Shown in pieces: positions 2,750-31,628 of a DNA stretch of 64,000 bases (the first letter of the stretch is position 1; every line of letters begins with the position of its first letter). This stretch comes from an uncultured Candidatus Saccharibacteria bacterium. GTDB lineage: Bacteria; Patescibacteriota; CPR2_A; CAYFQT01. Made by a program: the position numbers and the translations under genes. The DNA lies in NCBI GenBank assembly GCA_964345445.1, contig CAYFQT010000026.1:5685-69684 (forward strand). The letters run 5' to 3'. The notes under the pieces are model-generated. The model had not been told where the DNA came from. It saw only the letters and a list, made by a program, of their open reading frames with translations, and made no database searches.

Positions 2750-2787
2750 TACTGGAAAAAATTTTCAATTTTTTTTCAACCCGCCGT

Positions 2788-2871
2788 GCCCTGGTGCTGA
2801 AACTGGTAGACAGGCGTGGTTCAGGACCACGTGCTCAAAAGAGCGTGAGAGTTCGAATCTCTCCCAGGGCA
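2788..2871 (+). tRNA. tRNA-Leu (anticodon CAG), type II with long variable arm
   Basis: Acceptor GCCCTGG/CCAGGGC with discriminator A. Anticodon loop ttCAGga, long variable arm, T-loop TTCGAAT. Confidence 0.8.
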
Positions 2872-2921
2872 TTTTGCCAAATGAAGCCAAAATAGTATAA
2901 TTGAACTAGTTCATTCAATTA

Positions 2922-3005
2922 GCCCCCGTGGCGGAACTGGCATACGCGACAGGTTGAGGGCCTGTGTCCTTTTAGGACGTACTGGTTCAAATCCAGTCGG
3001 GGGCA
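2922..3005 (+). tRNA. tRNA-Leu (anticodon GAG), type II
   Basis: Acceptor GCCCCCG/CGGGGGC with discriminator A. Anticodon loop ttGAGgg, variable-arm hairpin gtcct-ttt-aggac, T-loop TTCAAAT. Confidence 0.7.
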
Positions 3006-3043
3006 CTGCGTTAGAAGAAACCCTTCAATTATTTTATCTTTAA

Positions 3044-3117
3044 GGGTGCTTAGCTCAGTTGGTTAGAGTGACTGGTTTACATCCAGTAGGTCGGGGGTTC
3101 GAATCCCTCAGCACCCA
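3044..3117 (+). tRNA. tRNA-Val (anticodon TAC)
   Basis: GGGTGCTTAGCTCAGTTGG...cloverleaf. Anticodon loop ttTACat, T-arm GGGGGTTCGAATCCCTC, acceptor GGGTGCT/AGCACCC. Confidence 0.85.
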
Positions 3118-3137
3118 CGTCGAAACAAAATTTAAGC

Positions 3138-3165
3138 TTTCGCCCCGAAAGCTTTCGGGGCGAAA
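3138..3165. terminator. Perfect 28-nt palindrome (12-bp GC-rich stem, AGCT loop) between tRNA-Val and tRNA-Phe. Hairpin, possibly a terminator or processing site.
   Basis: TTTCGCCCCGAAAGCTTTCGGGGCGAAA equals its own reverse complement. Confidence 0.5.
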
Positions 3166-3186
3166 ATGAAAGGTTTGTTTGGACGC

Positions 3187-3262
3187 GCCGAGGTAGCTCA
3201 GGTAGTAGAGCACAGGTCTGAAAAACCTGGTGTCCCCAGTGCAAGTCTGGGCCTCGGCACCA
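3187..3262 (+). tRNA. tRNA-Phe (anticodon GAA), with encoded CCA
   Basis: Acceptor GCCGAGG/CCTCGGC + A + CCA. D-arm TAGCTCAGGTAGTAGAGC, anticodon loop ctGAAaa. The T-loop tgcaagt is atypical (G at position 55). Confidence 0.75.
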
Positions 3263-3562
3263 CGTCGAAGTTATTCCACTATACATCCTGCTTCAGCAGG
3301 CTGCACCGCTCCATAAACTTCTCCTCTTTCTACAAAATACTAAAGTATTTTGTCGAGTTGAAAAAATTCTAAAGAATTTTTGCGAAAAAGGAGCATTGCT
3401 GAAGATGGAAACAAAATTTTTGAAGAAAATTTTGTGGAATCGGAGGTTGAAAATTTTACCCGTAAAAATTCTTCAGAATTTTTACGGAAAAGGAGAAGTA
3501 AAGCGAAAATTGGAATGATTTCTTAGGAAGAAATCATAAAAATGGCAGCTTTACTTCGACGT

Positions 3563-3635
3563 GCGGGTGTAGCTCAGTTGATAGAGCATCTGCTTGCCAT
3601 GCAGAAGGTCGTGGGTTTAAGTCCCATCACCCGCT
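3563..3635 (+). tRNA. tRNA-Gly (anticodon GCC)
   Basis: GCGGGTGTAGCTCAGTTGATAGAGC. Anticodon loop ttGCCat, discriminator U as expected for Gly. The overlapping ORF 3542-3817 translates the tRNA (AGVAQLIEH... artefact). Confidence 0.85.
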
Positions 3636-3817
3636 TCGTCGGAATAAACTTCCAGCTTTTGCGAATTTGTTTTACAAATTTGCTACCACTTTCAGTTTAT
3701 TCCTCCTCTTTCGCAAAAAATCTGACGATTTTTTGCAAGACAAAAACATTAGGTGACCTATTTTTCCTGTTTATAAGCGGGGCAGGGTCCGCGGTCTGCC
3801 TGCCCGCCAAAGCCTAG

Positions 3818-3889
3818 GGCCTCGTGACCGAGTGGTTTAGGTAGCGGTCTGCAAAACCGCGTACGGCGGTTCAAATCCGCCCGAGGCCT
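3818..3889 (+). tRNA. tRNA-Cys (anticodon GCA)
   Basis: Acceptor GGCCTCG/CGAGGCC with discriminator U (Cys-typical). Anticodon loop ctGCAaa, T-arm GGCGGTTCAAATCCGCC. Confidence 0.8.
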
Positions 3890-3894
3890 CTGAC

Positions 3895-3990
3895 ACTGGC
3901 AGGCGGGCCTGCCCGCTAATGCAAGCATAGCGTTGCAGGCGGGCAAAACCGAGTACAGCATGCGAATCCGCTCCAGGCCTCCGTAATTAA
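3895..3990 (+). pseudogene. Degenerate tRNA-Cys-like 3' half (tRNA remnant) fused to a GC-rich dispersed motif
   Basis: gcaaaaccgagtacagcatgcgaatccgctccaggcctcc is about 70% identical to the 3' half of the upstream tRNA-Cys but does not form a cloverleaf. Confidence 0.4.
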
Positions 3991-4019
3991 CTCATCTAAG
4001 GCATAATCAGAAAAAATAA

Positions 4020-4103
4020 GGGCGAGTGGCGGAATTGGTATACGCGCGACACTTAAAATGTCGTCCTGTTTACAGGGTGAGGGTTCGAGTCCCTCCTTGC
4101 CCA
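4020..4103 (+). tRNA. tRNA-Leu (anticodon TAA), type II
   Basis: Acceptor GGGCGAG/CTTGCCC with discriminator A. Anticodon stem CGACA/TGTCG with loop ctTAAaa, long variable arm, T-arm GAGGGTTCGAGTCCCTC. Confidence 0.8.
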
Positions 4104-4368
4104 CGTCCAAATAAACTTTCAGTTTTCGCGATCTCACAAAGTGAAATCGCTGTCACTTACAGTTTATTCCTCCTCTTTCTTCAAAATACTAAAGTATTTT
4201 GACGAGTAAATATAATACTTCCGACTTTCATGATTTTGTAGAACAAAATCGTTCTTTTTTAAAAAATCCTTGATTTTTTGATTTATAAGACTTAAAATAA
4301 AATATCTATAAAGAACATTTACAATTAAATACAAGACGAAAATCAAAATTTTAAAGGAGTGATAGTTA

Positions 4369-13359: not shown

Positions 13360-13551
13360 TTATTTTTTTGGTTTTTTAAAAATCAAGATAATTGGAGTGA
13401 ATGTTGATTGTCTTATAAAATAAATTAATTCCCATTCTTTTTGGCCAAATTCGTTTAATTTCGATTCTAATTCTTTCTTGAAGTCTTTTTTTTCTTCTAG
13501 GTTTTTAATTTTGAAATAGCAAACTTTATATTTCCATTTCATCACCATCAC
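13360..13551 (-). CDS. small hypothetical protein (DUF4177-like?)
   Basis: 63-aa ORF MKWKYKVCYFKIKN...GQKEWELIYF, co-directional with the upstream Cys-rich gene and followed by the terminator. Confidence 0.35.
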   Translation of the reverse strand: MMVMKWKYKVCYFKIKNLEEKKDFKKELESKLNEFGQKEWELIYFIRQSTFTPIILIFKKPKK

Positions 13552-13614: not shown

Positions 13615-14067
13615 TTATCCAATTAGATATCTACAGGAATCATCTGTCAGCGGTTTTTCCTTTTTTTCTGCTCCTATAGTTTGGAGATTATAGGGGTTTT
13701 CGCCTAAACGAGGTAAAATTTTGTATTTGCATTCCTCGCAAAATGTCCATCTTTCTTTTCTTAGATTTTCAGGAAACATATTATGGATGCGGAAAAGATA
13801 ATTAAATCCTTTTTCACATCCACACAAAGTACAAGTGCCTCCATCTGACTTTTTGCCCGCAAATAAAGATTTTAAATCATTATAACATTCAATACATAAT
13901 AGATATTTGTCGCTATAAGCTTCTCTATTTCCTCGACTTAAATAAATTTTTACAGCTTTTCCTGCAGCTTTTTTATGGTAGTTTAAACCCTCTACATCAG
14001 AGGTTCTTTCAATTATTTTTTCTTTTCCACATCCATCGCTATCACATCTGAGATCATAAATTGACAT
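13615..14067 (-). CDS. cysteine-rich (four CxxC pairs) putative zinc-binding protein
   Basis: RBS AAAGGAGTG upstream on the minus strand. Motifs CDSDGC, CIEC, CTLCGC and CEEC. Confidence 0.5.
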   Translation of the reverse strand: MSIYDLRCDSDGCGKEKIIERTSDVEGLNYHKKAAGKAVKIYLSRGNREAYSDKYLLCIECYNDLKSLFAGKKSDGGTCTLCGCEKGFNYLFRIHNMFPENLRKERWTFCEECKYKILPRLGENPYNLQTIGAEKKEKPLTDDSCRYLIG

Positions 14068-14237: not shown

Positions 14238-14537
14238 ATGGCATTAACTAAGAAGCAAATTGAACATATTGCTATGTTGGCTCGTTTAGGTTTGACAGAA
14301 AAAGAAAAGAAGAGGTTTGAAAGACAACTTTCTTCTGTTTTGGACTATGTAAATCAACTTAATAAAGTAAATACAAAAAATGTCCAGCCAATTGCCCAAA
14401 TAACAGGACTTAAAAATGTAATGGAGGAGGATAAAGTAAAAAGTGATAAGGAGAAGATATCAAAAGATAAATTGTTGAAGAATGCGCCAATGCAGGAAGA
14501 AGGGTGTGTGAAAGTGAAAGCGGTATTAGAAGAGTAA
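14238..14537 (+). CDS. gatC: Asp/Glu-tRNA(Asn/Gln) amidotransferase subunit C
   Basis: MALTKKQIEHIAMLARLGLTEKEKKRFERQLSSVLDYVNQL is a canonical GatC N-terminus. Promoter-like TTGTCA-17-TATACT lies at 14152-14187. Confidence 0.85.
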   Translation: MALTKKQIEHIAMLARLGLTEKEKKRFERQLSSVLDYVNQLNKVNTKNVQPIAQITGLKNVMEEDKVKSDKEKISKDKLLKNAPMQEEGCVKVKAVLEE

Positions 14538-14596
14538 AGGTTACTATGAGTTACTAGAAGTTACTAATGGTTACTAAGAAAGTTACTAGAGGTTAT

Positions 14597-14992
14597 ATGC
14601 AAGAGGAAGCTTATAAAAAATTATTAGTTTGGAAAAATATTTGTGAGTTAAGAAGACTGATTTATAAAATAACTGAGAGATTTGCTAAGACTCATCCAAG
14701 ATTAGCTGGACAAATGAGAGACGCTACAAGATCAGCAAAACAGAATTTTATAGAAGGATATAAACGAGATTCAATTGGATTATTTATTCAATCTGTTAAA
14801 GTTAGCCGAGGCTCTTTAGGAGAATTGGATGGTGATATTGATGATTGTTATGAAGATAATTTAATTACAAAATTGGAGTATACTAATTTAAGTAATTTGA
14901 GTAAAAAATCTTTATACTTAATTGATAGATATATAGATTCGTTATATAAAATGCAAAAAGAAAAAACTTGGAGAGTAAGGTGGCAAAAATAA
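14597..14992 (+). CDS. four-helix-bundle protein (TIGR02436-like), inserted between gatC and gatA
   Basis: ...LLVWKNICELRRLIYKITERFAKTHPRLAGQMRDATRSAKQNFIEGY is characteristic of this family. ATG at 14597 has a better RBS (AGAGG) than the ORF-track start at 14567. Inverted heptamer arrays flank the gene. Confidence 0.65.
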   Translation: MQEEAYKKLLVWKNICELRRLIYKITERFAKTHPRLAGQMRDATRSAKQNFIEGYKRDSIGLFIQSVKVSRGSLGELDGDIDDCYEDNLITKLEYTNLSNLSKKSLYLIDRYIDSLYKMQKEKTWRVRWQK

Positions 14993-15059: not shown

Positions 15060-16646
15060 ATGAATTTAGAAAATCTTACAATTTTACAAGCTCATAAGAA
15101 GCTGAAAAATAAAGAGACTTCATCGGTTGAATTAACCAAAGCAGTTTTGGATAGAATTAAAAAGACTGATAATAAGATTAATGCTTTTATTACAGTCACA
15201 GAAAAAGAAGCATTAAAACAAGCAGAAGAGGCTGACAAACGGATTAAAACTGGAAAGATGCTGAGTAAACTTGATGGAATTCCAGTGGCTCTAAAAGACA
15301 ATATGGCAACAGAAGGAATTTTAACAACAGCTGGTTCTAAGATTTTAGAGAATTTTAAACCGCCTTATGATGCTACAGTTGTTAAAAAAATAAAAGATGC
15401 TGGTGCTATTATTATTGGCAAAACCAATATGGATGAGTTTGCCATGGGTTCTTCTTGTGAAACTTCTTATTTTGGTCCTACGAAAAATCCTTGGGATACA
15501 TCCCGAGTTCCTGGTGGCTCTTCAGGAGGTTCTGCAGCGGCTGTTTCAGCTTCACAATGCATTTATGCCCTGGGTTCTGATACCGGTGGTTCTATTCGCC
15601 AACCAGCCTCTTTTTGTGGTTGTGTAGGCTTAAAACCTACTTATGGTCGAGTATCTCGATATGGTCTTTTGGCTATGGCCTCTTCTTTGGATCAAATTGG
15701 ACCACTTGTAAAAAATACAGAAGATGCAGCAGCAGTTTTGGAGGCTATTTCTGGATATGATGGGGAAGATAGCACAAGCGTAGACAAAAAGTTCAAAGTT
15801 CAAAGTTCAAAGTTCAAAGTTTTAAAAAATGTAAAAATTGGGATTGCTAAGGAGTATTTTAGGGAAGGTTTAGATAAAAAAGTTGAAGATAAGATAAAAT
15901 CAGCGATTAAAGTTTTAGAGTCAAGGGGAGCCAAGATTGAAAATGTTAGCTTACCTCATACTCAATATACCTTAGCTTGCTATTATATAATTATGCCTTC
16001 AGAAGCTTCCACTAATTTAGCCAGATATGATGGAATAAAATATGGATATTCAACCACTCAAATCTCAAATCTCAACTCTCAAAACTTATTAGATGTCTAT
16101 CTACAATCAAGGGCAGAAGGTTTTGGAGATGAGGTAAAAAGGCGAATAATGTTAGGAACTCATACATTATCTTCAGGTTATTATGATCAATATTACTTAA
16201 AAGCTGCTAAAGTTAGAACAAAAATAAAAGAAGATTTTGACAAAGCATTTTCTAAAGTGGATGTTTTAATAACTCCTACTTCACCAACTGTTGCTTTTCC
16301 ACTCGGGGAAAAGTTAGATGATCCATTGACTATGTATTTATCGGATATTTATACAGTACCGGTTAATTTAGCCGGAGTGCCGGCAATTTCTGTTCCTTGT
16401 GGACTAGTTAAAAAGGTTACTAAAAGTTACCAAAAGGATACTAAAAAGTTACTAAAGAGAGTTGATAAAAATACTTTTAGTAACAATTTGCAACCCCTAG
16501 TAACCCCTAGTAGCTCATTATTACCTGTAGGTTTACAAATAATAGGTCCTCAGTGGGGAGAAGAGAAAATTCTACAAACAGCTTATATCTATGAACAGGC
16601 AACAAAAGATGAGGGGTGGAGGAAATTAAAGCCAAGTATAAAGTAA
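15060..16646 (+). CDS. gatA: Glu-tRNA(Gln) amidotransferase subunit A, with in-frame repeat insertions
   Basis: Amidase signature [11 protein letters not shown], plus [10 protein letters not shown] and the catalytic Ser/Lys context. Three low-complexity inserts are encoded by short DNA repeats. Confidence 0.9.
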
Positions 16647-21258: not shown

Positions 21259-24200
21259 ATGGCTAATTTTGTGCATCTACATACCCATAGCCATTTTAGT
21301 CTTTTAGATGGCTTAGGAAAAATAGATGATCTTTTAAATAGAGCCAAAGAGCTTGGAATGGATGCCTTGGCTTTGACTGATCATGGCGTAATGTATGGGG
21401 CTATAGAGTTTTATAATAAGGCTTGTAAAGTGGGAATTAAACCAATTATAGGTTGTGAGGTATATGTAGCTTCTAAAACACTTGATCAAAAAACTTCCAA
21501 ATTAGATACTAATTTCTATCATTTAACTTTACTTGCTAAAAACAAAGAAGGTTATTTAAATTTAATTAAACTTACTACAAAAGCTCATCTTGAAGGCTAT
21601 TATTATAAACCCCGAGTGGATAAAAATTTACTAAGGAAATATAAAAAAGGATTGATTGCTCTCTCTGGTTGTCTTCAAGGAGAGATATCCCAAGCAATTA
21701 TCTCAGATAATATTCAAGATGCTCAAAAAATAGCTTTAGAATATCAAGAAATTTTTGGCCCAGGAAATTTTTATTTAGAGGTAATGCATCACCCAAAAAT
21801 TCCTGATCAGAAAAAATCAACTCAAGGGATGATAGAGATAAATAAAAAAGTGGGCATTCCTTTGGTTGCTACCAATGATATTCATTATATAAGAAGTGAA
21901 GACGCCGAGGCTCATGATATTTTGCTTTGTGTTCAGACTGGAAAAACTGTGGATGAGAAAGAAAGATTGGATATGAAAGGTGGAGATTTTTCTATGAAAT
22001 CAAAAGATGAAATGATCTCAGCCTTCTCTGATATTCCTTCTGCTTGTGAAAATACAGTAAAAATTGCTAAAAGATGCAATTTGGGATTAGAATTAGGAAA
22101 AGTTTTATTACCTTATTTTGAAGTACCCAAAGGATATACAGATATTAGTTATTTAAGAAAATTGTGTTACCAAGGATTTATAGATAAATTTGGGAACAAA
22201 AAGACCAAAGAACAAAACAGCAAAATAGCCCTTCGACTTCGCTCAGGGCAAGTTAAACAGCAGTTGGAAAAAATTAATAAAGAAGCTTCTGGTCGTCTTG
22301 AATATGAACTTTCTGTTATTGAAAAGATGGGTTTTGCTTCTTATTTTTTAATTGTGGCTGATTTTGTTAATTATGCTAAAGACCAAGGTATTTTAGTGGG
22401 ACCCGGCCGTGGAAGTGCTGCTGGGAGTATGACTTCCTATGTTTTAAATATTACAGATTTGAATCCATTGGATTATAGTCTTCTTTTTGAAAGATTTTTA
22501 AATCCTGATCGCATATCTATGCCAGATTTTGATATAGATTTTGCTGATGATAGAAGAGGAGAGGTTATTGATTATGTAGCCCAAAAATATGGCATTGATC
22601 ATGTAGCTCAGATTGTTACTTTTGGAACTATGGCCGCTAGAAATGCTACCCGTGATGTAGGTAGAGCAATGGGTTTGAGCTATTCAGATGTAGATAGGAT
22701 TGCTAAATTAATTCCTTGGAATGTTTCTTTAAACCAAGCTTTATCTATGGTAGCTGAGTTAAGAGATTTAGCTGATTCTGATCCTCAAGTGGAGAAATTA
22801 ATTAAAATGGCTCGTAAATTAGAAGGAGTAGCTCGCCATGCTTCCACTCATGCTGCAGGCGTGGTTATTTCCAAAGAACCTTTAACTTATTATGTTCCTC
22901 TTCAAAAATCAACTAGGGGTGAGGTAACAGCCACCACTCAATATTCAATGTATGATATTGAGGAAATTGGGCTCTTAAAGATAGATCTTCTGGGACTTTC
23001 TAATCTTACTATTTTACAAAATGCTATTGCTATAATTGAAGAAACTCATAGAAAAAAGATTGATTTACAGAATATTCCTTTTGATGATGAAAAAACTTAC
23101 CAATTATTACAGAAAGGAGAAACTGTAGGAGTATTTCAGTTAGAGTCCGAAGGGATGACCCGTTATATCAAAGAACTTAAACCTGCTTGCTTTGATGATC
23201 TTATTGCTATAGTAGCTTTGTATCGTCCAGGTCCTTTAGGTAGTGGCATGGTGGAAGATTTTATAAATAGAAAACAAGGAAAATCAGAGATTAAATATCT
23301 TCATCTTGGATTAGAGCCAATTTTAAAAGATACCTACGGGGTAATAATTTATCAGGAACAAGTTATGCAAATAGCTACACAGTTGGCTGGTTATTCAGGT
23401 CCTGAGGCTGATACATTACGCAAGGCGGTAGGAAAAAAGTTGCCTCGAGAGATGAAGAGACAAAAAGAACATTTTATTTCTGGTTGTATTAAAAATGGAC
23501 TTTCACCAAAAATAGCCGAAAGGATTTTTGAATTAATAGAATTTTTTGCTGGGTATGGATTTAATAAATCTCATGCTACTTGTTATGCTCATATTGCCTA
23601 TCAAACTGCTTACCTGAAAGCTCATTTTCCAGCTTGCTTTATGGCAGCGCTCCTAACGGCTGATTGTGATGATATAGACAAGATAGCTAAAGAAGTTACA
23701 GAATGTGGAAGACTGGGGATTTCTGTTTTGCCCCCAGATGTTAATGAGAGTTTTGATTATTTTACAGTTTTAGATAACAGTCATATTCGTTTTGGATTGC
23801 AAGCTATAAAAAATGTAGGTCATGGAGCAATCCGAAGTATTGTTTCTGCAAGAGAAAAAGAAGGTCCATTTTCTTCTTTAGATGATTTTATAAAGAGAGT
23901 AGATCCCGGCCAAGTTAATAAAAAAGTCCTAGAGAGTTTGATAAAATCAGGGGCACAAGATCGTTTAGGCAAACGAGAAGAGATGTTAGCTGGAGTAGAT
24001 CAAATTATTGCCTATAGTCAGATGGTTCATAAAAATTTTAGAAATGGTCAAATGGATATGTTTGATATTCTCCAAGATGATCTTTTGCCAAAATTAAAGC
24101 TTCCTAAAATAGAAGAGGTATCTCAGAAACAAAGACTTGCTTGGGAAAAAGAACTTTTAGGACTTTATGTTTCTTCCCATCCTTTATCTTCTATAAAAGA

Positions 24201-24807
24201 ATATTTAAATCATAAAGCCATCTCTTTAGATAGTTTATCTTTTGATTGTGTGGGCAAAAAAGTAAAAATAGGGGGAATTATAACTGCTGTGCAGAAAGTT
24301 TTCACTCGAACTTCTGAACCTATGCTCTTTGTGACAATTGAAGATTTAACCGGGAGTGTAGAAGTTTTAGTCTTTCCTAAGCTGTTTAAAAAAACTTCCG
24401 GGGTTTGGCAGGAGGATAATGTTGTTTTAGTAGAAGGAGTAATTAATACTAAAGATAATCAGATTAAAATTCTGTGTAATGATGTTGTCGAAATTAATCA
24501 ACAAAAAGCTTCTAATTTTGAAAAAAGTTTAAAACTTTCTTCTGCTAAACAAAATGCAAAAGGTTTAATAAAGAAGAAAACAGTATTCATTAAATTTCCT
24601 GAAAATTCAGATATTAACTTATTAAAACAAATTCAAAAGATTTTAATTGAACGTAGAGGTAAGGACAAGGTAGTTTTATATATTCCTTCAAAAAGCAATA
24701 AATTACAAAGATTGGATATACCTTATAAAATAGATTATTCTGATGAATTAAAAGAACAACTAAGTTCAGTATTAAAAAATGGTAAAGTAGAAGTTGCAGA
24801 GACTTGA
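21259..24807 (+). CDS. dnaE: DNA polymerase III alpha subunit
   Basis: PHP domain (HLHTHSHFSLLDG), polymerase core motifs (GPGRGSAAGS, PDFDIDF) and an OB domain. 1182 aa. Confidence 0.9.
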   Translation: MANFVHLHTHSHFSLLDGLGKIDDLLNRAKELGMDALALTDHGVMYGAIEFYNKACKVGIKPIIGCEVYVASKTLDQKTSKLDTNFYHLTLLAKNKEGYLNLIKLTTKAHLEGYYYKPRVDKNLLRKYKKGLIALSGCLQGEISQAIISDNIQDAQKIALEYQEIFGPGNFYLEVMHHPKIPDQKKSTQGMIEINKKVGIPLVATNDIHYIRSEDAEAHDILLCVQTGKTVDEKERLDMKGGDFSMKSKDEMISAFSDIPSACENTVKIAKRCNLGLELGKVLLPYFEVPKGYTDISYLRKLCYQGFIDKFGNKKTKEQNSKIALRLRSGQVKQQLEKINKEASGRLEYELSVIEKMGFASYFLIVADFVNYAKDQGILVGPGRGSAAGSMTSYVLNITDLNPLDYSLLFERFLNPDRISMPDFDIDFADDRRGEVIDYVAQKYGIDHVAQIVTFGTMAARNATRDVGRAMGLSYSDVDRIAKLIPWNVSLNQALSMVAELRDLADSDPQVEKLIKMARKLEGVARHASTHAAGVVISKEPLTYYVPLQKSTRGEVTATTQYSMYDIEEIGLLKIDLLGLSNLTILQNAIAIIEETHRKKIDLQNIPFDDEKTYQLLQKGETVGVFQLESEGMTRYIKELKPACFDDLIAIVALYRPGPLGSGMVEDFINRKQGKSEIKYLHLGLEPILKDTYGVIIYQEQVMQIATQLAGYSGPEADTLRKAVGKKLPREMKRQKEHFISGCIKNGLSPKIAERIFELIEFFAGYGFNKSHATCYAHIAYQTAYLKAHFPACFMAALLTADCDDIDKIAKEVTECGRLGISVLPPDVNESFDYFTVLDNSHIRFGLQAIKNVGHGAIRSIVSAREKEGPFSSLDDFIKRVDPGQVNKKVLESLIKSGAQDRLGKREEMLAGVDQIIAYSQMVHKNFRNGQMDMFDILQDDLLPKLKLPKIEEVSQKQRLAWEKELLGLYVSSHPLSSIKEYLNHKAISLDSLSFDCVGKKVKIGGIITAVQKVFTRTSEPMLFVTIEDLTGSVEVLVFPKLFKKTSGVWQEDNVVLVEGVINTKDNQIKILCNDVVEINQQKASNFEKSLKLSSAKQNAKGLIKKKTVFIKFPENSDINLLKQIQKILIERRGKDKVVLYIPSKSNKLQRLDIPYKIDYSDELKEQLSSVLKNGKVEVAET

Positions 24808-24962
24808 CATTTGGTAAATGTTTAGATAATATATAAACAGAATAAAAAATAAAAGCAAAAATCGTAAATCGTAGGAAGTGTTCTTACGAGTATTTTTATT
24901 TTTTAAGTTCTTTGAAAATCTTTTAGTTTTGAATTTGGAACTTGGAAGGGAGAGATAGGAGG

Positions 24963-25163
24963 ATGGATGATTTATGTGATGGTTGTGAGAAAATAAAAGA
25001 AAGATTAAAAGAAGTGAAAAATAATATTTTAAAATTAACAGGAGAGGAATTAGAGAGGTTAAGCTCCATTATTGATTATCAAAGGAGGGATGATTTAGGT
25101 ATAGAGTGCATTAATTGTCCAGGAAGATATTCAGAAGATATTATTGTAGAGGTTGTTTCATAA
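24963..25163 (+). CDS. small zinc-ribbon-like protein (CxxC...CxxC)
   Basis: RBS GATAGGAGG. Sequence MDDLCDGCEK...CINCPG. First of three tandem Cys-rich genes. Confidence 0.35.
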   Translation: MDDLCDGCEKIKERLKEVKNNILKLTGEELERLSSIIDYQRRDDLGIECINCPGRYSEDIIVEVVS

Positions 25164-25173
25164 AAAAGGAGTG

Positions 25174-25371
25174 ATGTTGTTGTATGATCAAGGAGTGTGT
25201 AAAAAAAGAGTTGAGAAGTCAGAGCTATGTCTTGAAAATGGAGGTGATAAGAGCAAGATAATGGAAAGAGCTAAAGCATTTTTGAATTTGGTGGACTGTT
25301 CTTTATGTAATCACAATTTAGACTGTTGTCTAAGAATTAAGTTATATGAATATAGCTTAGGAAGGTGGTGA
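25174..25371 (+). CDS. small cysteine-rich protein
   Basis: RBS AAGGAG. Motifs CKK...C...CSLCNHNLDCC. Confidence 0.3.
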   Translation: MLLYDQGVCKKRVEKSELCLENGGDKSKIMERAKAFLNLVDCSLCNHNLDCCLRIKLYEYSLGRW

Positions 25372-25442
25372 AAAATGGAAAGGTTTACTTGCTTTTATTT
25401 GCAGTAAATTCGTAGAAAATTATAAAGAAAAGGAGTACAAAG

Positions 25443-26018
25443 ATGTGTGATAGAAGAAAAAGGATCTGGTCAGAAGATGTTAGAGAAAGTCTTTGTTTTC
25501 CTGTTTGCCAGAAAGAAATAAATGGAAATTTAAAATTTCTAAAAAAGGCAGTTGAAAATCTAAATATAGAAGGGAGTCGTTCTTTTTTATTAGAAAAAGG
25601 GATAAGATCTTTAAGTCCCACAGAGTTTAGTAATATTTTTAATTCAGTAGGTAGTTTTATGAAAGATAAGACAAAAGTGAAATTATGTGCTTCGTGTTCT
25701 CTTTTTCTTGAGGTTTCCCAAATAGAAGATATTCTTAATGATATCAAATGCGGTTTTTGTTTTCAACTTAGGGAAGAGAGAAAGAAATTTGATTTTATGG
25801 AACCAGGATATGAAGATAGTGTAGTCAAATGGAGTACTATAGCTCGAAGTTCGGATTGTGAACATTGTGAGTGCAATCCAACAGAACTTTTAGGAAGTAT
25901 AGTGGAAAAGGTTCTAAACGAGCAGTCCCCCAAGATATCAGAGAATTCTTTAATGAATTCTATGCTTGTTTCGTCAAAAGTTGATGTAACTCAGGTACAA
26001 AGGGGGAGATATTTTTAA
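25443..26018 (+). CDS. cysteine-rich protein with multiple CxxC motifs
   Basis: RBS AAGGAG before the ATG. Motifs CFPVC, CASC, CGFC and CEHCEC. 191 aa. Confidence 0.45.
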   Translation: MCDRRKRIWSEDVRESLCFPVCQKEINGNLKFLKKAVENLNIEGSRSFLLEKGIRSLSPTEFSNIFNSVGSFMKDKTKVKLCASCSLFLEVSQIEDILNDIKCGFCFQLREERKKFDFMEPGYEDSVVKWSTIARSSDCEHCECNPTELLGSIVEKVLNEQSPKISENSLMNSMLVSSKVDVTQVQRGRYF

Positions 26019-26197
26019 AGAAAAAGGATAGTAATTTTAGTATGATTTTGCCCCGCCTAAGGTAAATTTGTCAGTTTCTATTTTAAGAAAGGATGATGTA
26101 TAAAAAATAAATAAAAACTGAATAGTAATTAAAATGAGATTGAAAATTATCGGAAGTAAAATAGTAAATAAATTCTATTTGTCCATCCGTTTAATAT

Positions 26198-26250
26198 GCA
26201 GGGCTAAATAGAGCGCCCCCCGCTCATATTTTTACCCTGCTTTTTTTATT
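26198..26250 (+). terminator. terminator-like nested hairpin followed by a T-run
   Basis: GCAGGGC...GAGCG-ccccc-CGCTC...ACCCTGC followed by TTTTTTTAT. Confidence 0.5.
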
Positions 26251-26384
26251 GATTTTTTATTGCCTAATTCATTTTTTTGTGGTATAAAATATAGAGTACA
26301 ATAACTAATTTATTCTTCGAGCTATCCCGATGTCCATCGGGGAAGTCGAGAAGTACATTTTCTTCTACAATATAGAGGTTAAAA

Positions 26385-27007
26385 TGGATCTATTAGAGAT
26401 TTTTGAAAAAGAGCAAATAAAAAATAAACCCCTTCAAATAAATCCTGGAGATAAAATTAAAGTTTACCAGAAAATTCAAGAAGGGGGGAAGACTCGAACC
26501 CAAAGTTTTGAGGGTATTGTTATTCGGAAAAGAGTAATGAAGACAGCTAGGGCTAATTTTACTGTGCGGAAGATCGTTTCAGGCATTGGTGTAGAAAAAA
26601 CATTTTTTATTCATTCTCCTAATATTACTAAGATTAAAATTACAAAAAAAGGAAAGACAAGAAGAGCTAAACTTTATTATATTAGAGAAAGGCGGGGTAG
26701 AGCTGCAAAAATGAGAGAAAAAGAGGGGGAATTAAGTGAGTGGGAAATTGCAACAACAGAGCCGGCAAAACAGCCCACTGAAACGCCAAAAGAGAAAATT
26801 GAAGAAAAACCAGAAGTTAAGGAAAAATCCCAAAAACCCTTCTCCACTAAAACTTCAGAGGGCAGGGTAGAAAAGGAAGGGTCAAAAGAGAAGAAAAAAG
26901 AAGAGATTAAGGATGAAAAGAAAGAATCAAAACAAAAAGAGACAAAAACATCCTCTTCTGCTGATATAACTTCAAAGGATAAAAAGAAAAGAAAGGAAAA
27001 ATCCTAA
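26385..27007 (+). CDS. rplS: 50S ribosomal protein L19 with long K/E-rich C-terminal extension
   Basis: The L19 core (...GDKIKVYQKIQEGGKTRTQSFEGIVIRKR...FTVRKI..GIGVEKTF..HSP.I..I) ends near R134 and about 90 aa of KE-rich tail follow. Start ATG 26385 with GAGG RBS. A TTGCCT-17-TATAAA promoter lies at 26263-26295. Confidence 0.85.
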
Positions 27008-27210: not shown

Positions 27211-28278
27211 ATGAAATCTAAAAATTCAGTATTTGAACCTTCTGTTGGTATTGTTATTCCTGCCTATAATGAAGAAAAGACTATTGCTACTGTTTTAGAA
27301 AGCATATTCAGTCAAACTAGATTACCTGATCAAATAATTGTGGTTGATGATTGTTCAGAAGATATGACAGGAAAAATAGCCAAGAGTTATAAAGGAGTTG
27401 AGGTAATTCGACCTGAGGTCAATCAAGGAACTAAAGCCCAAGCTCAGAATATTGCTTTGCCTTATGTTAAGACAGAAATTGTTATTACTATTGATGGTGA
27501 TACTATTCTAGCCCTTAATGCTATAGAAGAAATTCTTAATGCTTTTAAAGGTGAAAAACCCGCAGTCGCAGCTTGTGGTTTTATTGTTCCTAAGAAGATT
27601 AGAACTGTTTGGGAAAAGGGGCGGTTTATAGAATATCTTTTTGGTATAACACTTTATAAGAATATTCAAAAAGAATATAATGCAATAATGGTTTGTTCTG
27701 GTTGTTTTTCAGCTTTTAATACTAAAAAATTAATAGATCATGGAGGTTTTCAAAAGAGAACAATGGCTGAAGATATGGATCTTACTTGGGGTTATTTGGC
27801 AAGAAAAGAGAAAGTAGCATATGTTCCTAATGCTATTTGTTATCCTATAGAGCCAGAAACTTTTCCAATTTTTAAAGCTCAAATTCGAAGATGGTATCGG
27901 TCTTTCTTTCAAAATATTGCCATTCACAAAAGGAATATTTTTACTTTTAAAAATCCTGTTCTTAGTCTAATTATTTTAACAGGATTATTGGATGGAACGA
28001 TTTTTCCTTTAATGTTTGGAACTTCTATTTATTTCTCTATTCACTCAAAATCTTTTATGGTCAAATTGATTTGTATATGGATACTTTTTGATTTAATAGT
28101 TGTTCTAATTCCCATACTGATAAAAGGGTATAAAATTAAGAAATTAAAAGTTGCAGTATTATCTATTCCTTTTTTCCTTTTTGTCACCAGATGGGTAAAT
28201 TCTTTTTTCTTTTTTGAATCATTTATAAAGGAATGGATTTTAAAAAAACGTTTAAGTGTTTGGGAAAAAGGACATTGA
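27211..28278 (+). CDS. family 2 glycosyltransferase (membrane)
   Basis: GT-A motifs VIPAYNEE, VVDDCS and DGD. C-terminal TM helices. Confidence 0.75.
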   Translation: MKSKNSVFEPSVGIVIPAYNEEKTIATVLESIFSQTRLPDQIIVVDDCSEDMTGKIAKSYKGVEVIRPEVNQGTKAQAQNIALPYVKTEIVITIDGDTILALNAIEEILNAFKGEKPAVAACGFIVPKKIRTVWEKGRFIEYLFGITLYKNIQKEYNAIMVCSGCFSAFNTKKLIDHGGFQKRTMAEDMDLTWGYLARKEKVAYVPNAICYPIEPETFPIFKAQIRRWYRSFFQNIAIHKRNIFTFKNPVLSLIILTGLLDGTIFPLMFGTSIYFSIHSKSFMVKLICIWILFDLIVVLIPILIKGYKIKKLKVAVLSIPFFLFVTRWVNSFFFFESFIKEWILKKRLSVWEKGH

Positions 28279-28987
28279 TATTAGAGGAGGGGTAGGAGAT
28301 TTGAAAGATTATAAAAAGAGATTTTCTGAATTGGATACACTAAAAAAGATAATCTATCTTTTTGGTTTGTTTGTAATAATATTAAGTTTTGGTTTTTTGG
28401 CAACTGGTGGCTATTTGTTCTATAAATATCCTTATCAGAATTACCTAGTCAGTAAAAGGAATGAGAGATCTTTAAAAAAATTTAATGAGGGCCTTCAGAA
28501 CAAAACTGTTAAGGGAATTAATGAATTTAGAATAATAAAAAAGAAAAAGATTTCTCTTCAATTTCCCTACAAGATGGAGATTCCGAAGATTAATCTTAAT
28601 TGGTTGGTTTATCCTACAGAATATGAAGAAAAATTCCCTTATGGTATTAATAAAAAGTATTTGGATTCATATGGCGCTTGTCACTATCCTGAAACTTGTT
28701 TACCTGGTGAGACTGGAGTTTGTGCTATAGCTGGTCATCGGACAACTTATGGTTCACCCTTTCGTAATATTGACAAATTGGTGAAAGGGGACAAAGTCAT
28801 CTTAAGCAAAGAATCAATTGTTTATACTTATAAAGTTTTGGAGGTAAAGATTATTTCGGCTGATTATATAAAGATTTTAGATCCACCTGAAGAAGAAAAA
28901 TCCTTTCTTGTTTTAACTACATGTCATCCTCCTGGTTCAGCCAAAAAACGTATTGTTGTAATAGCTGTAATGGAAGGAGATGGGTGA
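28256..28987 (+). CDS. sortase (transpeptidase)
   Basis: N-terminal TM anchor. Catalytic His in AIAGHRTTYG, TLxTC-type Cys in LVLTTCHPPGS, and the downstream Arg. The true start may be the TTG at 28301 (AGGAGG RBS). Confidence 0.8.
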   Translation: MFGKKDIDIRGGVGDLKDYKKRFSELDTLKKIIYLFGLFVIILSFGFLATGGYLFYKYPYQNYLVSKRNERSLKKFNEGLQNKTVKGINEFRIIKKKKISLQFPYKMEIPKINLNWLVYPTEYEEKFPYGINKKYLDSYGACHYPETCLPGETGVCAIAGHRTTYGSPFRNIDKLVKGDKVILSKESIVYTYKVLEVKIISADYIKILDPPEEEKSFLVLTTCHPPGSAKKRIVVIAVMEGDG

Positions 28988-28989
28988 GT

Positions 28990-30177
28990 ATGGAAAAGAT
29001 TTCCCGTAGGAATTTGTTGATTTTTATTGTTGCTTTTCTTTTACTAACTTTTGTATTAGCAATAGTAGGGTTGTATTATTTTGTAGGTAATTCAAAAAAA
29101 TCATCTACAAAAATTGACTCAAAATCAGAAGATAATTTAGACAAAGAAGCTTGGGAAAGATTACCAGCTCCAAAGGTGATTTTAGGTCGTTCAAAAATTA
29201 TAGTGCCAAAGAAAGCACAAGTGGTAACCCAAGTGGATAGAGTATTAAGAGATGTTAATTGGAAAGATTCGCCTTTTAACCAAGAAGTGTCTGTTGATAC
29301 TCGGCCAGAATCTCCTGATCAAATAGTTCCTTATATGGAGGGAGCAAGAATAAAGGAGTTGATGAAATATTCTCAAATTGAGGTGATACCGCTTGGTAAC
29401 ACTAAAGCAGTTAAAATTGATGAAGATTATTATGCTGCTGATGCCGAAAGTGACTATAAGTTTAAAATTGACCCTTCTAAATTAGACTATCCTTCAGTAA
29501 TCAAAGAAGATAATTCAGTAATTTTACCTGATACTCATGGTTTTAATTCTATAGCTGGTTTGACAGCAGGACTTCAACCTAAACCTTATTTGGCAGTTGC
29601 TTGTATGGATTTGCCTTCTAAAGCTGATGCTACTTTATATTTAGCTGAAAGAGGTATTAATTGCTATGCTCCTTGTGATCGTTTTGGATCTCAAATCTTA
29701 GGTTACAATAATAATTATGAAATTAAAGGTACTATTATTGGTACTGCTCCAGTAAAAAAGCATAAAGAAGAGGCAGTAATTGGCGACCAACCTTTAGCAT
29801 TTTCTACTTCGGAGTCTATCTGTGTTCAATATACTGATAAAGGTTATCCAGATCAATATTGTGATACTCCTTGGCGTTATTTTGAAGCTTTGAATAAGAA
29901 ATATAAGCTAGATTTGGATTTGATTAAAGTTAATGCCAATGTTGGAGAAGCAGACAAAGTTGTAAAAAAGGCTAAAAAAAACAAAATCAATACTATTGCT
30001 GTTAGAGTTTCTGAAGAAGAAGATGCTAAAGCGGTCAGAAAATGGCTTAAGGAAAATGATTATCATAAAGCTATTCTTTTTCATTCAGCTCCTTATGAAC
30101 CTGGATATAAATTATTTTTTGAATTTCCTGAAAAGGTGACATTTGGAGATTTAGATCCTCAAGTTATACCGGAATAA
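28990..30177 (+). CDS. secreted/membrane-anchored protein, candidate sortase substrate. Its sorting signal is displaced to the next frame.
   Basis: RBS GGAAGGAG before ATG 28990. N-terminal signal/TM (LLIFIVAFLLLTFVLAIVGLYYF). It ends ...DPQVIPE* directly upstream of the LPITG mini-ORF. Confidence 0.55.
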   Translation: MEKISRRNLLIFIVAFLLLTFVLAIVGLYYFVGNSKKSSTKIDSKSEDNLDKEAWERLPAPKVILGRSKIIVPKKAQVVTQVDRVLRDVNWKDSPFNQEVSVDTRPESPDQIVPYMEGARIKELMKYSQIEVIPLGNTKAVKIDEDYYAADAESDYKFKIDPSKLDYPSVIKEDNSVILPDTHGFNSIAGLTAGLQPKPYLAVACMDLPSKADATLYLAERGINCYAPCDRFGSQILGYNNNYEIKGTIIGTAPVKKHKEEAVIGDQPLAFSTSESICVQYTDKGYPDQYCDTPWRYFEALNKKYKLDLDLIKVNANVGEADKVVKKAKKNKINTIAVRVSEEEDAKAVRKWLKENDYHKAILFHSAPYEPGYKLFFEFPEKVTFGDLDPQVIPE

Positions 30178-30191
30178 AGGAGGTGCAGAAA

Positions 30192-30314
30192 GTGGATCGT
30201 TTACCCATAACTGGTGGTTTTTCTGTTGGTAGTTTGATTATTGTAGCAATACTTGGAATAGGAGCTCTATGTATAGCCGCAGGGCGTAGATTGAGAGCTT
30301 TTGCTAAAAAATAA
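30192..30314 (+). pseudogene. Orphan LPXTG cell-wall sorting signal (LPITG + hydrophobic segment + RRLR tail). Probably the frameshifted C-terminus of 28990-30177.
   Basis: Translation VDRLPITGGFSVGSLIIVAILGIGALCIAAGRRLRAFAKK*. The -1 frame is open from 30132 across the A4 run at 30131-30134. An AGGAGG-8nt-GTG context is also present. Confidence 0.55.
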
Positions 30315-30425: not shown

Positions 30426-30541
30426 TATATATTTTTATAAATTAAATTTGACAAATCAAACTGAGCTTGACAAACAATTCTTGATATAATATATTTAGAT
30501 ATCCTGATAAAATTTGGGAAAATTTGCACTTTAAAAAGGTG

Positions 30542-30721
30542 ATGAAAAAAATGAGTCAGAAAAAGTCAAAAGAAGAAGAAATTTGCCCAACTTGCAGAGG
30601 TAAAGGAAAAATTAATATTGGAATTGGTAGAATTCCTGGACATACCCATTTTCATTCTATAGGTACTAAAGAATGTCCTGATTGTAAAGGTACAGGAAAA
30701 GTGCAAAAAGAGAAATCTTAA
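30542..30721 (+). CDS. mini DnaJ-type zinc-finger protein (two CxxCxGxG repeats)
   Basis: CPTCRGKGKI and CPDCKGTGKV. Start uncertain (30524, 30542 or 30551). Confidence 0.4.
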   Translation: MKKMSQKKSKEEEICPTCRGKGKINIGIGRIPGHTHFHSIGTKECPDCKGTGKVQKEKS

Positions 30722-30725
30722 GAAG

Positions 30726-30956
30726 TTGAAGAATATGACAACAATAGATTCTTATTCTAGTCCTAATACTAAATGTTCTTATCTATATTGTAGTCGTGAG
30801 TTTAAAAATGGTGAGAGAATTCTACTTTCAGAAGATGGAGAAACTTTTTGCTTTGATAGAATATGTGGCAATCTTCAATCAGTAAAGGAGTCAAAAACAG
30901 TACATATAGATAGAGTAAGATTTTTTCAGGAAAATATTGAGAAAGGAATGATTTAA
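30726..30956 (+). CDS. small zinc-ribbon-like protein
   Basis: C..YC...(24 aa)...C....C spacing. 76 aa. Tightly packed with neighbours. Confidence 0.3.
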   Translation: MKNMTTIDSYSSPNTKCSYLYCSREFKNGERILLSEDGETFCFDRICGNLQSVKESKTVHIDRVRFFQENIEKGMI

Positions 30957-30957
30957 A

Positions 30958-31311
30958 ATGAAAGATGGTTGTGAGAAAGGATATGGAAAGCATTGTTTTA
31001 AATGTAATTCAAAAAATCGTCTGTTTTCTTTAGTAAATACAGGGGCAGGGATGGATACAGAAATGTTAGAAGATTTTGGTAAGAGACAAATTGCAATAAA
31101 TTGTTCGTGTCTTGAAGGTTATTTAGTTTTAGAACTAAATAAGAAAGAAATTTATAAATTAAGTAATAGTAAAGTAAGGGAGTTAAGTGAAGAGATAGTT
31201 AATAATAAATTAATAAAAGCAGACGATGTTCAGTCATACCTTGATAAATATGGAGATAAGGTATCAATTGAGGTTCTGCAGCCTTGTAGAATCTTTCCAC
31301 CTTATCCCTAG
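30958..31311 (+). CDS. small cysteine-containing hypothetical protein
   Basis: MKDGCEKGYGKHCFKCNS...INCSC. 117 aa. Start overlaps the previous stop (ATAA...ATG). A terminator hairpin at 31338-31389 (GAGACCC...GGGTCTC + T6) follows. Confidence 0.35.
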   Translation: MKDGCEKGYGKHCFKCNSKNRLFSLVNTGAGMDTEMLEDFGKRQIAINCSCLEGYLVLELNKKEIYKLSNSKVRELSEEIVNNKLIKADDVQSYLDKYGDKVSIEVLQPCRIFPPYP

Positions 31312-31628
31312 TGAAAAATATTGAGAATTTTGGGTGTGGAGACCCCGGTGCTTTGCACTGATATACACTATAAAGGGTCTCTTTTTTGTTTAATTATATT
31401 AAGTACCCAAAATATCTAGTAGTTAGTGTTATAATATTTTTTTATCTTTTAATTTAAAATAAATAACATTAGATCACAAAATTCAGCTATCGCATATTTT
31501 TGTGACAATGGAAGTTGTATAACCGAAGATTATTGGATTATTAGTATCTAAAATTATCCAAGAGTGTTATAATATTTTTAGAATATATTTTTTATAAAGA
31601 TTAAAATTAGCACCTTTGGTGTAGAATT

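Follow-up and report, generated by a model that had tools for sequence, protein, structure and literature searches.

Seven small cysteine-rich genes, called A to G here, lie in the window (the whole stretch of 64,000 nucleotides that was analysed), and six of them form two tandem trios, A–C and D–F. Judging from gene order in related genomes, the trio arrangement is a snapshot of one genome and not a co-inherited functional module. All seven ORFs were found where, and on the strands on which, a preliminary description of this DNA had placed them (Table 1). The explanation towards which we lean as a whole, though only slightly, is that A–G would be genuine, mutually unrelated genes for small cytoplasmic proteins whose cysteine pairs likely hold a structural metal. 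Genes A–F would occupy two hypervariable accessory islands at fixed positions, island 1 between dnaE and rplS and island 2 between an LPXTG sorting-signal ORF and rnhB. Single small genes appear to be gained, lost or replaced in these islands and to diverge quickly. The products may be stand-alone binding or adaptor mini-proteins.

Table 1. Cysteine-rich genes and flanking elements in the window.
Feature	Coordinates	Strand	Description
G	13615..14067	-	150 aa, Cys-rich singleton; three CxxC and one Cx4C
dnaE terminator	24869..24899	+	terminator-like hairpin and T-run; divides dnaE from island 1
A	24963..25163	+	66 aa, acidic; CxxC-x40-CxxC flanking a predicted helical segment
B	25174..25371	+	65 aa; conserved C9, C19, C42, C45, C51; CLENGG motif
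C	25443..26018	+	191 aa, 10 Cys; AAGGAG upstream
Conserved intergenic element	26046..26100	+	GCCCCGCCTAAGG...AAGAAAGGATGATG; repeats at other junctions in relatives
Island 1 closing terminator	26199..26250	+	GCAGGG...CCCTGC and T-run; inner stem GAGCG/CGCTC
Promoter-like site	30467..30495	+	TTGACA-17-TATATT, 5′ of D; 11/12 consensus match only
D	30542..30721	+	59 aa (56 aa from ATG at 30551), basic; two CxxCxGxG units
E	30735..30956	+	73 aa from ATG; two Cx4C pairs
F	30958..31311	+	117 aa; one CxxC and one CxC; GAGMD.EM motif, C-terminal PC..LPPYP
Probable terminator after F	31339..31387	+	GAGACCC...GGGTCTC and T-run, read from sequence

Two related genomes were found, both metagenomic, with DnaE 81–89% identical. 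In a scan of genome contigs with the C-terminal half of DnaE, the matches listed were polymerases from many phyla, 38–47% identical, with no close relative among them. Two further sequences considered as indel variants (L081 and L082) are of the same strain and contain runs of N; they are therefore uninformative on conservation. Both variable spots lie at the same positions in the relatives. In the first relative (L084) the order is dnaE-X1-X2-B-C-rplS, with A absent, and in island 2 an unrelated 81-aa ORF stands in the slot of D and is followed by E-F-rnhB. In the second (L083 and L088) we find dnaE-X1-X2-A-B in island 1 and D-145aa-182aa-rnhB in island 2, where E and F are missing and the two genes following D are unrelated ones. 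Gene F occurs alone in other lineages, in unrelated contexts (L085, L086, L089, L091 and L092). Because island contents differ between related genomes, the trios can be regarded as accidental. The pattern of presence and absence is thinly sampled, since the clade is represented by three genomes, two of them fragmentary only.

In island 1 the proteins diverge about 6–7 times faster than DnaE. More specifically, in one genome pair dN is about 0.38–0.40 for A and B versus 0.06 for dnaE, and B and C are 32–38% identical where DnaE is 81% identical. The homologue of A (P0015 in L083) shares 44% of residues and keeps all four cysteines of the CxxC pairs at residues 5 and 49. Protein B, which has six cysteines and one CxxC, is 48% (pairwise alignment) or 43% (MAFFT) identical to its counterpart in L083 and 32% to that in L084; five of the cysteines are invariant across the three B sequences (32–48% pairwise identity). 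Residues 74–191 of C match P0016, a 110-aa protein of L084, at 38% identity with the CxxC at position 103 kept, and the N-terminal 72 aa are found in the present genome alone. A shorter start of C at M73, which would fit the 110-aa homologue, was rejected: the N-terminal 72 codons are equally coding, both halves of the gene scoring as such, and the start giving 191 aa has the better ribosome-binding site. An AF2 model of C was unusable (pLDDT 41.4). The preliminary description gave lengths of 67, 66 and 191 aa for this trio, of which only the last is right, A and B being one residue shorter each. Its total of six CxxC pairs over the three proteins is correct, although C contributes three of them together with one CxxxC, and not four. 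The stem of the dnaE terminator (CGTAAG/CTTACG) is kept in L083 and L084, and the hairpin closing the island is retained in L084 with another outer stem (ACCGTATA/TATACGGT). X1 and X2, the additional island 1 genes of the relatives, are likewise Cys-rich, and the uniform filling of the island (X1, X2, A, B and C) could reflect a hidden shared function.

In island 2 the homologue of D (P0017 in L088) is 76% identical and keeps all four cysteines and both CxxCxGxG units, CPTCRGKG and CPDCKGTG. These DnaJ-type units had been recognised from the start, in a protein then taken to have 60 residues. Protein E contains no CxxC; its homologue in L084 is 79% identical with all four cysteines conserved. 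E is absent from L088, no homologue beyond L084 was obtained in protein and metagenome searches, and metagenome scans with E patterns returned the L084 contig again and nothing else. The F family comprises six cluster representatives at 36–50% identity, and C16 and C49 are invariant in all eight F-family sequences. If our reading is right, F founds a small family, so far uncharacterised, that extends over several lineages. Metagenome scans with F patterns gave no match, and the fold of F (AF2 model, pLDDT 63.8) had no match in the PDB or BFVD. Homology with L084 extends as far as the probable terminator 3′ of F, which the scanner missed because its loop is long. A frameshift fusion of a 418-aa protein to the LPITG mini-ORF was also considered. 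No slippery site was seen, so it is simpler to read the mini-ORF as a separate gene that carries a ribosome-binding site of its own.

Searches of A–G against Pfam (E ≤ 1), NCBIfam (E ≤ 0.01), PHROG, PADLOC and the PDB reached no family threshold. There was no match to an enzyme family, as the preliminary description had anticipated. Membership of ribosomal proteins L33/L36 or rubredoxin, which it had named as the outcome that would speak against its reading, was not observed for any of the seven: Pfam and NCBIfam listed no zinc-binding ribosomal protein of the L28/L31/L32/L33/L36/S14/S18 type, and Pfam gave no match to the rubredoxin model. Rubredoxin has CxxCG...CPxCG knuckles within about 50 aa, whereas the glycine of D is at +2 after the second cysteine, not +1. 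The only resemblance to a known family is the sub-threshold likeness of D to the DnaJ/anti-TRAP CxxCxGxG zinc finger. D scored 26.9 bits (E 5.9e-6) against PF00684 (DnaJ_CXXCXGXG; gathering cut-off 32.7) and 24.1 bits against the DnaJ chaperone model TIGR02349 (cut-off 377). Its scores against the anti-TRAP/RtpA models were also below the cut-offs, 20.5 bits for PF15777 (cut-off 32) and 25.3 bits for NF058604 (cut-off 65), and in the PDB it weakly matched DnaJ 1EXK and anti-TRAP 3LCZ (E 0.18 for the latter). PADLOC matched D alone, with two weak motif-level hits (E 7e-4 and 2.5e-3), and PHROG and PADLOC gave nothing for A–G beyond the motif-level matches of D. For the CxxC...CxxC pattern shared by A, D, G and X1, hints in Pfam and NCBIfam were to zinc-ribbon families only (E 0.007–0.24, none significant). 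The X1, X2, 81-aa, 145-aa and 182-aa ORFs of the relatives gave nothing in Pfam, NCBIfam, PHROG or PADLOC. The preliminary description considered the proteins lineage-specific, and the searches agree in that A–G appear restricted to a very narrow lineage. Paralogy among the seven proteins was examined and rejected. A and G gave 33% identity over 51 aa by BLASTP (E 0.003) but an hhalign probability of 3%, and for C and G the hhalign probability was 0.15%. No two of A–G are demonstrably paralogous.

The cysteines are the best-conserved residues of the homologue alignments, which makes metal binding plausible. In a generic Cys4 test two Cys-pair knuckles were conserved with all four cysteines in A, D and E (in E as Cx4C pairs). 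A, D and G have two knuckles paired as in zinc ribbons or zinc fingers; the Cx4C...Cx4C arrangement of E and the CxxC plus distant cysteine of F are candidate metal sites, and B has a five-cysteine candidate site for zinc or an Fe-S cluster. D would be a one-zinc, protein-binding finger of the DnaJ/anti-TRAP type. No hydrophobic segments or signal peptides were found, and the proteins are probably cytoplasmic.

It is possible, but rather unlikely, that the islands are hot spots for accessory genes and that their cargo belongs to the conflict systems of an ultra-small, episymbiotic bacterium, whether as fast-evolving parts of phage defence, anti-defence, toxin-antitoxin systems or host interaction; this estimate covers these roles jointly. 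Such a reading is compatible with the explanation we prefer and would supply it with a function. The genomes differ gene by gene in presence and absence at 81–89% DnaE identity, the non-synonymous rates are 6–7 times that of dnaE, and distribution is narrow or patchy, all of which speaks for this reading. Against this, PADLOC and PHROG were matchless save for the motif-level hits of D, scans of 2.9 million viral contigs gave no relatives of F, A or G, neither the islands nor the DNA beside them carries an integrase, a toxin-like or a nuclease domain, and secretion signals are lacking. We give little credence to a further extension, in which the dnaE–rplS interval of a rare sediment lineage would be a diversification hot spot rotating at least five unrelated metal-binding mini-protein families (X1, X2, A, B and C), its 6–7-fold speed coming from an arms race with phage, host cell or competitor. 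If that were true, the families would make up a new class of conflict proteins, small and Cys-rich, in ultra-small bacteria, and with B a Fe-S sensor of the WhiB type might exist outside Actinobacteria.

The preliminary description suggested that the tightly packed, co-oriented genes could be a module. We think it improbable that each trio is a co-transcribed, co-functional zinc-binding module with a nucleic-acid-binding or chaperone role. The genes in each trio are co-oriented with short gaps (10 and 71 nt in the first, 4–13 nt and 1 nt in the second), promoter-like and terminator-like sites bracket each trio, and D has its DnaJ-type units. The synteny data have already weakened this idea: co-occurrence of the trios in related genomes had been suggested as a check, and the check revealed mixing instead (X1-X2-B-C lacking A, X1-X2-A-B, E-F lacking D, and D lacking E-F). 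The members are combined differently in both relatives and F is solitary elsewhere, so there is no co-inheritance. Moreover, the isoelectric points of A, C, E and F are 4.5–7.5 (4.5 for A), and only three proteins are basic, namely D (9.7), G (8.5) and B (8.2). That most of the proteins are acidic or near-neutral argues against a shared nucleic-acid-binding role, and for A, C, E and F such a role is not favoured. The sole basis of a chaperone-like role is the sub-threshold motif of D, and neither a J domain nor another chaperone signature was found in Pfam or NCBIfam.

The candidate site of protein B could also be read as binding an iron-sulfur cluster instead of zinc, in which case B would be a small sensor of redox state or NO. 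WhiB-like (Wbl) proteins bind a [4Fe-4S] cluster with the spacing Cys-Xn-Cys-X2-Cys-X5-Cys (PMC5635160). The C19-x22-C42-x2-C45-x5-C51 pattern of B corresponds to this spacing and does not vary among the three B sequences. We consider such a role improbable: a four-cysteine spacing may arise by chance, the fifth conserved cysteine (C9) is outside the Wbl pattern, and the three B sequences have no Pfam match, to WhiB or otherwise. B shows no sequence similarity to Wbl proteins, its alignment lacks the G[VI]WGG turn and the basic C-terminal tail, it is shorter (65–78 aa) and it is non-actinobacterial, while Wbl proteins have been reported from Actinobacteria only.

A–G look coding. Codon-usage log-odds are positive (0.13–0.53) in the proposed frame only, while non-coding frames average −0.89 and have their 95th percentile at −0.07; A scores 0.53, B is the weakest at 0.13, and B and C lie towards the low end of the scores of real genes. 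A Shine-Dalgarno motif precedes all seven ORFs (GGAGG 5′ of the start of A, AAGGAG ahead of the ATG of B), and G is preceded by AAGGAG and by a promoter of the TTGACA type. Cysteine content is 5.1–9.2%, compared with an average of 1.13% in the putative proteins of the window (binomial P from 6e-3 to 2e-6 per protein), and two runs of three would result from placing seven Cys-rich genes randomly among 57 with P of about 3e-4. Six of the seven proteins (A–F) have homologues with conserved cysteines. The dN/dS ratios of about 0.18–0.84 point to weak to moderate purifying selection on A–F (D 0.18; E 0.29; F 0.31 against L084; C 0.41; A 0.57; B 0.35–0.84), with the reservation that they are noisy because dS is near saturation in several pairs (0.7–1.8) and the genes are short. 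It is very improbable in the light of these data that some or all of the ORFs are chance open frames in intergenic DNA. ORFs of 65–75 codons are indeed expected by chance here (the mean longest run in shuffles is 79 codons), B has no gene call in public records and G has no homologue. Frame-specific coding scores and ribosome-binding sites were seen in seven of seven, however, the six proteins with conserved homologues keep their cysteines at dN/dS below 1, and ORFs of 191 and 150 aa are far beyond chance length at 30% G+C. The stop-free run of C, 200 codons, is longer than in 2000 of 2000 shuffles. A spurious origin is thus largely refuted, with conservation bearing on all but G, and the lack of conservation that the preliminary description would have taken as a sign of spurious ORFs applies to none of A–F. 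G gave a self-match alone among 1.84 billion representatives, so that it is judged a real gene from the length of its ORF, its ribosome-binding site and its codon usage (score 0.24). It had been credited with four CxxC pairs, one of which is a Cx4C.

The intergenic element GCCCCGCCTAAGG...AAGAAAGGATGATG is present once in the window and also lies 3′ of C and 5′ of B in L084 and 5′ of A in L083; its appearance is that of an orphaned leader that includes a ribosome-binding site. That island 1 is an integron-like or other mobile cassette array is hardly credible: small co-oriented ORFs of unassigned function, variable content and an element of about 50 nt recurring at differing gene junctions are reminiscent of one, but neither attC-like imperfect palindromes nor a family of repeated junctions was seen between the genes, no integrase was found among the neighbours examined, and the element is leader-like and single-copy in the window.

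Based on these results, A–G are fast-evolving orphan proteins, gained and lost singly in two variable spots of the genome of a rare uncultured bacterium; they are new families of a kind already known. If our reading is right, they add seven members to the many small metal-binding proteins that await characterisation; none of the seven has a counterpart in Pfam, NCBIfam or the PDB, and they answer no long-standing question. The more useful outcome is the negative one: the trio modules vanish when two relatives are compared, which is a caution against deriving operon-level function from a single genome. The two islands, with the fast island 1 beside dnaE, offer a concrete place to seek lineage-specific adaptation in a poorly sampled uncultured group.

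Several known systems resemble individual members of the set. The zinc-ribbon families Zn_ribbon_13/DUF2082, FmdB CxxC_CxxC_SSSS and Zn_Ribbon_1 share CxxC...CxxC knuckle pairs with A, D, G and X1, but in A the two knuckles are separated by an insert of 40 residues that is probably helical. D resembles the DnaJ Cys-rich domain (PF00684) and anti-TRAP (RtpA, 53 aa) in that its two CxxCxGxG units, within about 55 aa, are laid out like a single zinc centre of DnaJ and like anti-TRAP. The DnaJ chaperone combines a J domain with four CxxCxGxG repeats and with C-terminal domains, whereas D has two repeats in 59 aa and no J domain. Both known proteins lack the lysine-rich N-terminal tail of D and its conserved His-rich loop GIPGHxHFHSIG, and the trp/TRAP context of anti-TRAP is missing around D. 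A parallel in size and pattern, for A and D, is given by the haloarchaeal C(P)XCG zinc-finger µ-proteins such as HVO_0758 and Brz, and the knuckles of D read CPxC. Those are cytoplasmic one-domain proteins of less than 70 aa with two Cys-pair knuckles, many per genome and mostly lineage-specific, with regulatory or uncharacterised function (PMC11241148, PMC10716476, PMC2253796). One of these reports mentions that some C(P)XCG proteins do not bind zinc (PMC11241148), so the motif alone is no proof of binding. The haloarchaeal proteins belong to another domain of life and have no sequence homology with A–G, and their two-knuckle pattern is missing in B, C, E and F. In comparison with them, the genes described here are set apart by their clustering in two variable islands.

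The seven cysteine-rich ORFs A–G behave as genes. A codon log-odds score, with 30 long window genes as training set and their five other frames as contrast, is positive in the proposed frame of each (A 0.53, D 0.46, F 0.33, E 0.26, G 0.24, C 0.19, B 0.13) and negative in the other five; 66-codon windows of real genes average 0.45 (sd 0.15) and non-coding frames −0.89 (95th percentile −0.07). An AGGAG-type ribosome-binding site is present at all seven. By length alone ORFs of ~70 codons are not significant in a shuffle test, and C is longer than in all 2000 shuffles. The loci of the preliminary description are confirmed with small corrections: C has the reported 191 aa, while A, B and D are each one residue shorter than the reported 67, 66 and 60 aa.

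The window has a G+C content of about 30–35% and carries nearly all genes on the plus strand. A, B and C lie in the same orientation between dnaE and rplS (island 1), and D, E and F between a 43-aa ORF and rnhB (island 2). In the terminator downstream of island 1, the outer stem of a relative's counterpart differs in sequence with the pairing kept. G and the 63-aa ORF directly downstream of it form one of the few minus-strand stretches. The L19 protein carries a Lys/Glu-rich C-terminal extension of ~90 aa, which differs in length in the related contig L084 (185 aa), the last ~25 residues being conserved. An open frame at the window edge seems to be the C-terminal part of a larger protein truncated where the window begins, and was therefore not taken as an eighth small Cys-rich protein.

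Coordinates of the features (in the window unless a contig is named)
Feature	Position	Strand	Remark
Open frame	35-289		84 aa, CKGCENNC...RCGKWE
Seven tRNA genes	2787-4104		Leu-CAG, Leu-GAG, Val, Phe, Gly, Cys, Leu-TAA; clustered
63-aa ORF	13360-13551	-	
G	13615-14067	-	150 aa
gatC	14238-14537		
PF05635 gene	14567-14992		'23S rRNA intervening sequence protein' family; between gatC and gatA
gatA	15060-16646		
dnaE	21259-24807	+	upstream flank of island 1
dnaE terminator	24869-24899		upstream bracket of island 1
A	24963-25163	+	66 aa, island 1
B	25174-25371	+	65 aa, island 1
C	25443-26018	+	191 aa, island 1
Element copy	26046-26100		after C
Terminator	26199-26250		downstream bracket of island 1
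rplS	26330-27007	+	Pfam Ribosomal_L19, 225 aa; downstream flank of island 1; true start probably ATG at 26384
Sortase gene	28256-28987		
418-aa ORF	28921-30177		membrane-anchored product, no Pfam match
Mini-gene	30183-30314	+	40-43 aa; likely start GTG at 30192
TTGACA-17-TATATT site	30467-30495		upstream of island 2
D	30542-30721	+	59 aa, island 2
E	30735-30956	+	73 aa, island 2
F	30958-31311	+	117 aa, island 2
Element copies	L084 10360-10420, 9650-9690		after C; before B
Element copy	L083 3597-3631		before A
X1-X2	L083 2802-3581, L084 8750-9628		between dnaE and A/B; compared with window 24808-24962

Cysteine makes up 5.1–9.2% of A–G as against an average of 1.13% in the putative proteins of the window (binomial P per protein 6e-3 to 2e-6). 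Two runs of three are expected with P ~3e-4 if seven Cys-rich genes are placed randomly among 57. The motif counts described previously were nearly right. The six CxxC pairs of island 1 stand, divided 2+1+3 among A, B and C, as do the two CxxCxGxG units of D; C, however, has three CxxC and one CxxxC instead of four CxxC. Likewise G is the Cys-rich minus-strand gene reported, with three CxxC and one Cx4C in place of four CxxC. E lacks CxxC and carries two Cx4C.

None of the seven proteins reached the curated thresholds of Pfam, NCBIfam, PHROGs or PADLOC, and none falls into the ribosomal-protein or rubredoxin families, membership of which would have spoken against the preliminary reading. PDB sequence searches with D and with family profiles of A, B and C gave no significant match. 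Only D has motif-level matches, namely to DnaJ_CXXCXGXG (26.9 bits, cut-off 32.7), anti-TRAP, phage Q-like zinc fingers and PDB 1EXK (E 0.025). A word-indexed search of 5.8 billion proteins returned for C only itself and for D one relative, P0017. When 1.84 billion representatives were searched exhaustively by HMMER with A+B+C+E+F+G concatenated, a concatenation that slightly shifts E-value calibration, F found six relatives beyond itself (36–50% identity, 106–119 aa), A one (P0015, 44%) and C one (P0016, 110 aa, matching residues 94–162 at 45%), and E and G matched nothing beyond themselves. As public records do not call B as a gene, it is missing from the searched library. Paralogy could be demonstrated for no pair among A–G.

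P0016 is encoded on a 75-kb contig (L084) of K1000, a metagenome assembly from deep-sea sediment of Loki's Castle, and this contig and the window are collinear: gatA...gatB-dnaE-[island]-rplS-GT2-sortase-418 aa-43 aa-[island]-rnhB-yraN-nusA. P0015 and P0017 are on two short contigs (L083 and L088) of one sequencing run, SRR22387873. Housekeeping proteins are 71–91% identical to those of the window in L084 and 84–89% in L083/L088 (dN/dS 0.12–0.23). The clade is rare: scans of JGI metagenomes recovered only the L084 contig again, and among 185,579 GTDB species representatives the best DnaE matches listed are 38–47% identical, the top ones (47%) being Saccharibacteria and Patescibacteria MAGs. 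Representation of the organism in public genomes is poor; the window's own proteins occur in NCBI only on one 79.7-kb contig and on pieces of GCA_012974965.1, a highly fragmented assembly.

The sortase, 418-aa and mini-gene arrangement is also kept in L084 (LPVTGG). Directly 3' of its two neighbours and with its own AGGAGG ribosome-binding site, the mini-gene encodes little more than a sortase sorting signal: (M)DRLPITGG, a hydrophobic helix and an RRLRAFAKK tail. Its frame is −1 relative to the 418-aa ORF with an overlap of 16 open codons, and no slippery site was seen between them. An LPXTG mini-protein standing alone is unusual.

Island contents differ among the three genomes. Island 1 reads A-B-C in the window, X1-X2-B-C without A in L084, and X1-X2-A-B up to the contig end in L083. 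X1, with two CxxC in 80–104 aa, and X2, with 5–7 Cys in about 150 aa, are further Cys-rich families, missing from the window as a single clean indel of ~900 bp. Island 2 reads D-E-F in the window; L084 has an unrelated 81-aa ORF exactly at D's place, then E-F, and in L088 D is followed by unrelated 145-aa and 182-aa ORFs, without E and F. Elsewhere, at five loci in other lineages, F-family genes are set in unrelated contexts, with neither D nor E. The trios are therefore not units of inheritance; the module proposed earlier is not supported.

A ~50-nt intergenic element, GCCCCGCCTAAGG...AAGAAAGGATGATG, occurs at four island 1 junctions across the three genomes. Its window copy looks like an orphaned gene leader, because only a 5-codon ORF comes after it. 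The B-C spacer of the window resembles the X1-X2 spacer of L084. Such elements and spacers look like leader or ribosome-binding-site segments left or reused at gene deletion or insertion; attC sites were considered for the element copies and rejected.

Six of the seven proteins are conserved, which speaks against the spurious ORFs once considered. By Nei-Gojobori, amino acid identity and dN/dS are 76% and 0.18 for D, 79% and 0.29 for E, 64% and 0.31 for F, 38% and 0.41 for C (residues 74–191), 32–48% and 0.35–0.84 for B, and 44% and 0.57 for A, rough figures with several dS near saturation and short genes. In the same genome pair dN is about 0.38–0.40 for A and B versus 0.06 for dnaE. The conserved core of these proteins is their cysteines: 4/4 are kept in each of A, D and E; C9, C19, C42, C45 and C51 of B are invariant in 3 sequences, together with a CLENGG motif; 8 F-family sequences all share C16 and C49 and mostly keep C13 and C110; and C keeps the CxxC at 103 and partly the 139–144 cluster. 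A conflict-related role of the island genes is a hypothesis to which only the fast evolution and gene turnover point, and the islands are accompanied by neither an integrase nor a phage gene and show no signature of a defence system.

No hydrophobic segment or signal peptide was found in any of A–G; their pI values are A 4.5, E 5.7, C 6.6, F 7.5, B 8.2, G 8.5 and D 9.7. Being small and probably cytoplasmic with conserved Cys pairs, they may most simply be read as metal-stabilised mini-domains. Knuckle pairs of the zinc-ribbon or zinc-finger kind are present in A, D, G and X1. Predicted structures were of no help here: Foldseek matched the model of F (pLDDT 63.8) to nothing significant in PDB or BFVD, and that of C has a pLDDT of 41. 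With scores below the cut-offs, D is built like a single DnaJ zinc centre or like anti-TRAP (53 aa), and on this ground would most likely be a protein-binding finger. The C-x22-C-x2-C-x5-C spacing of B equals the Fe-S pattern of Wbl proteins (PMC5635160), but B has no other feature in common with that family. A–G are new families of an already known kind, small Cys-based orphan proteins that probably bind metal; A–F occupy two hypervariable islands in a sediment bacterium that has seldom been sampled. The nearest described kind is the haloarchaeal C(P)XCG zinc-finger mu-proteins, which are small, number dozens per genome and are mostly lineage-specific, some being regulatory and zinc binding not being universal among them (PMC11241148, PMC10716476, PMC2253796).
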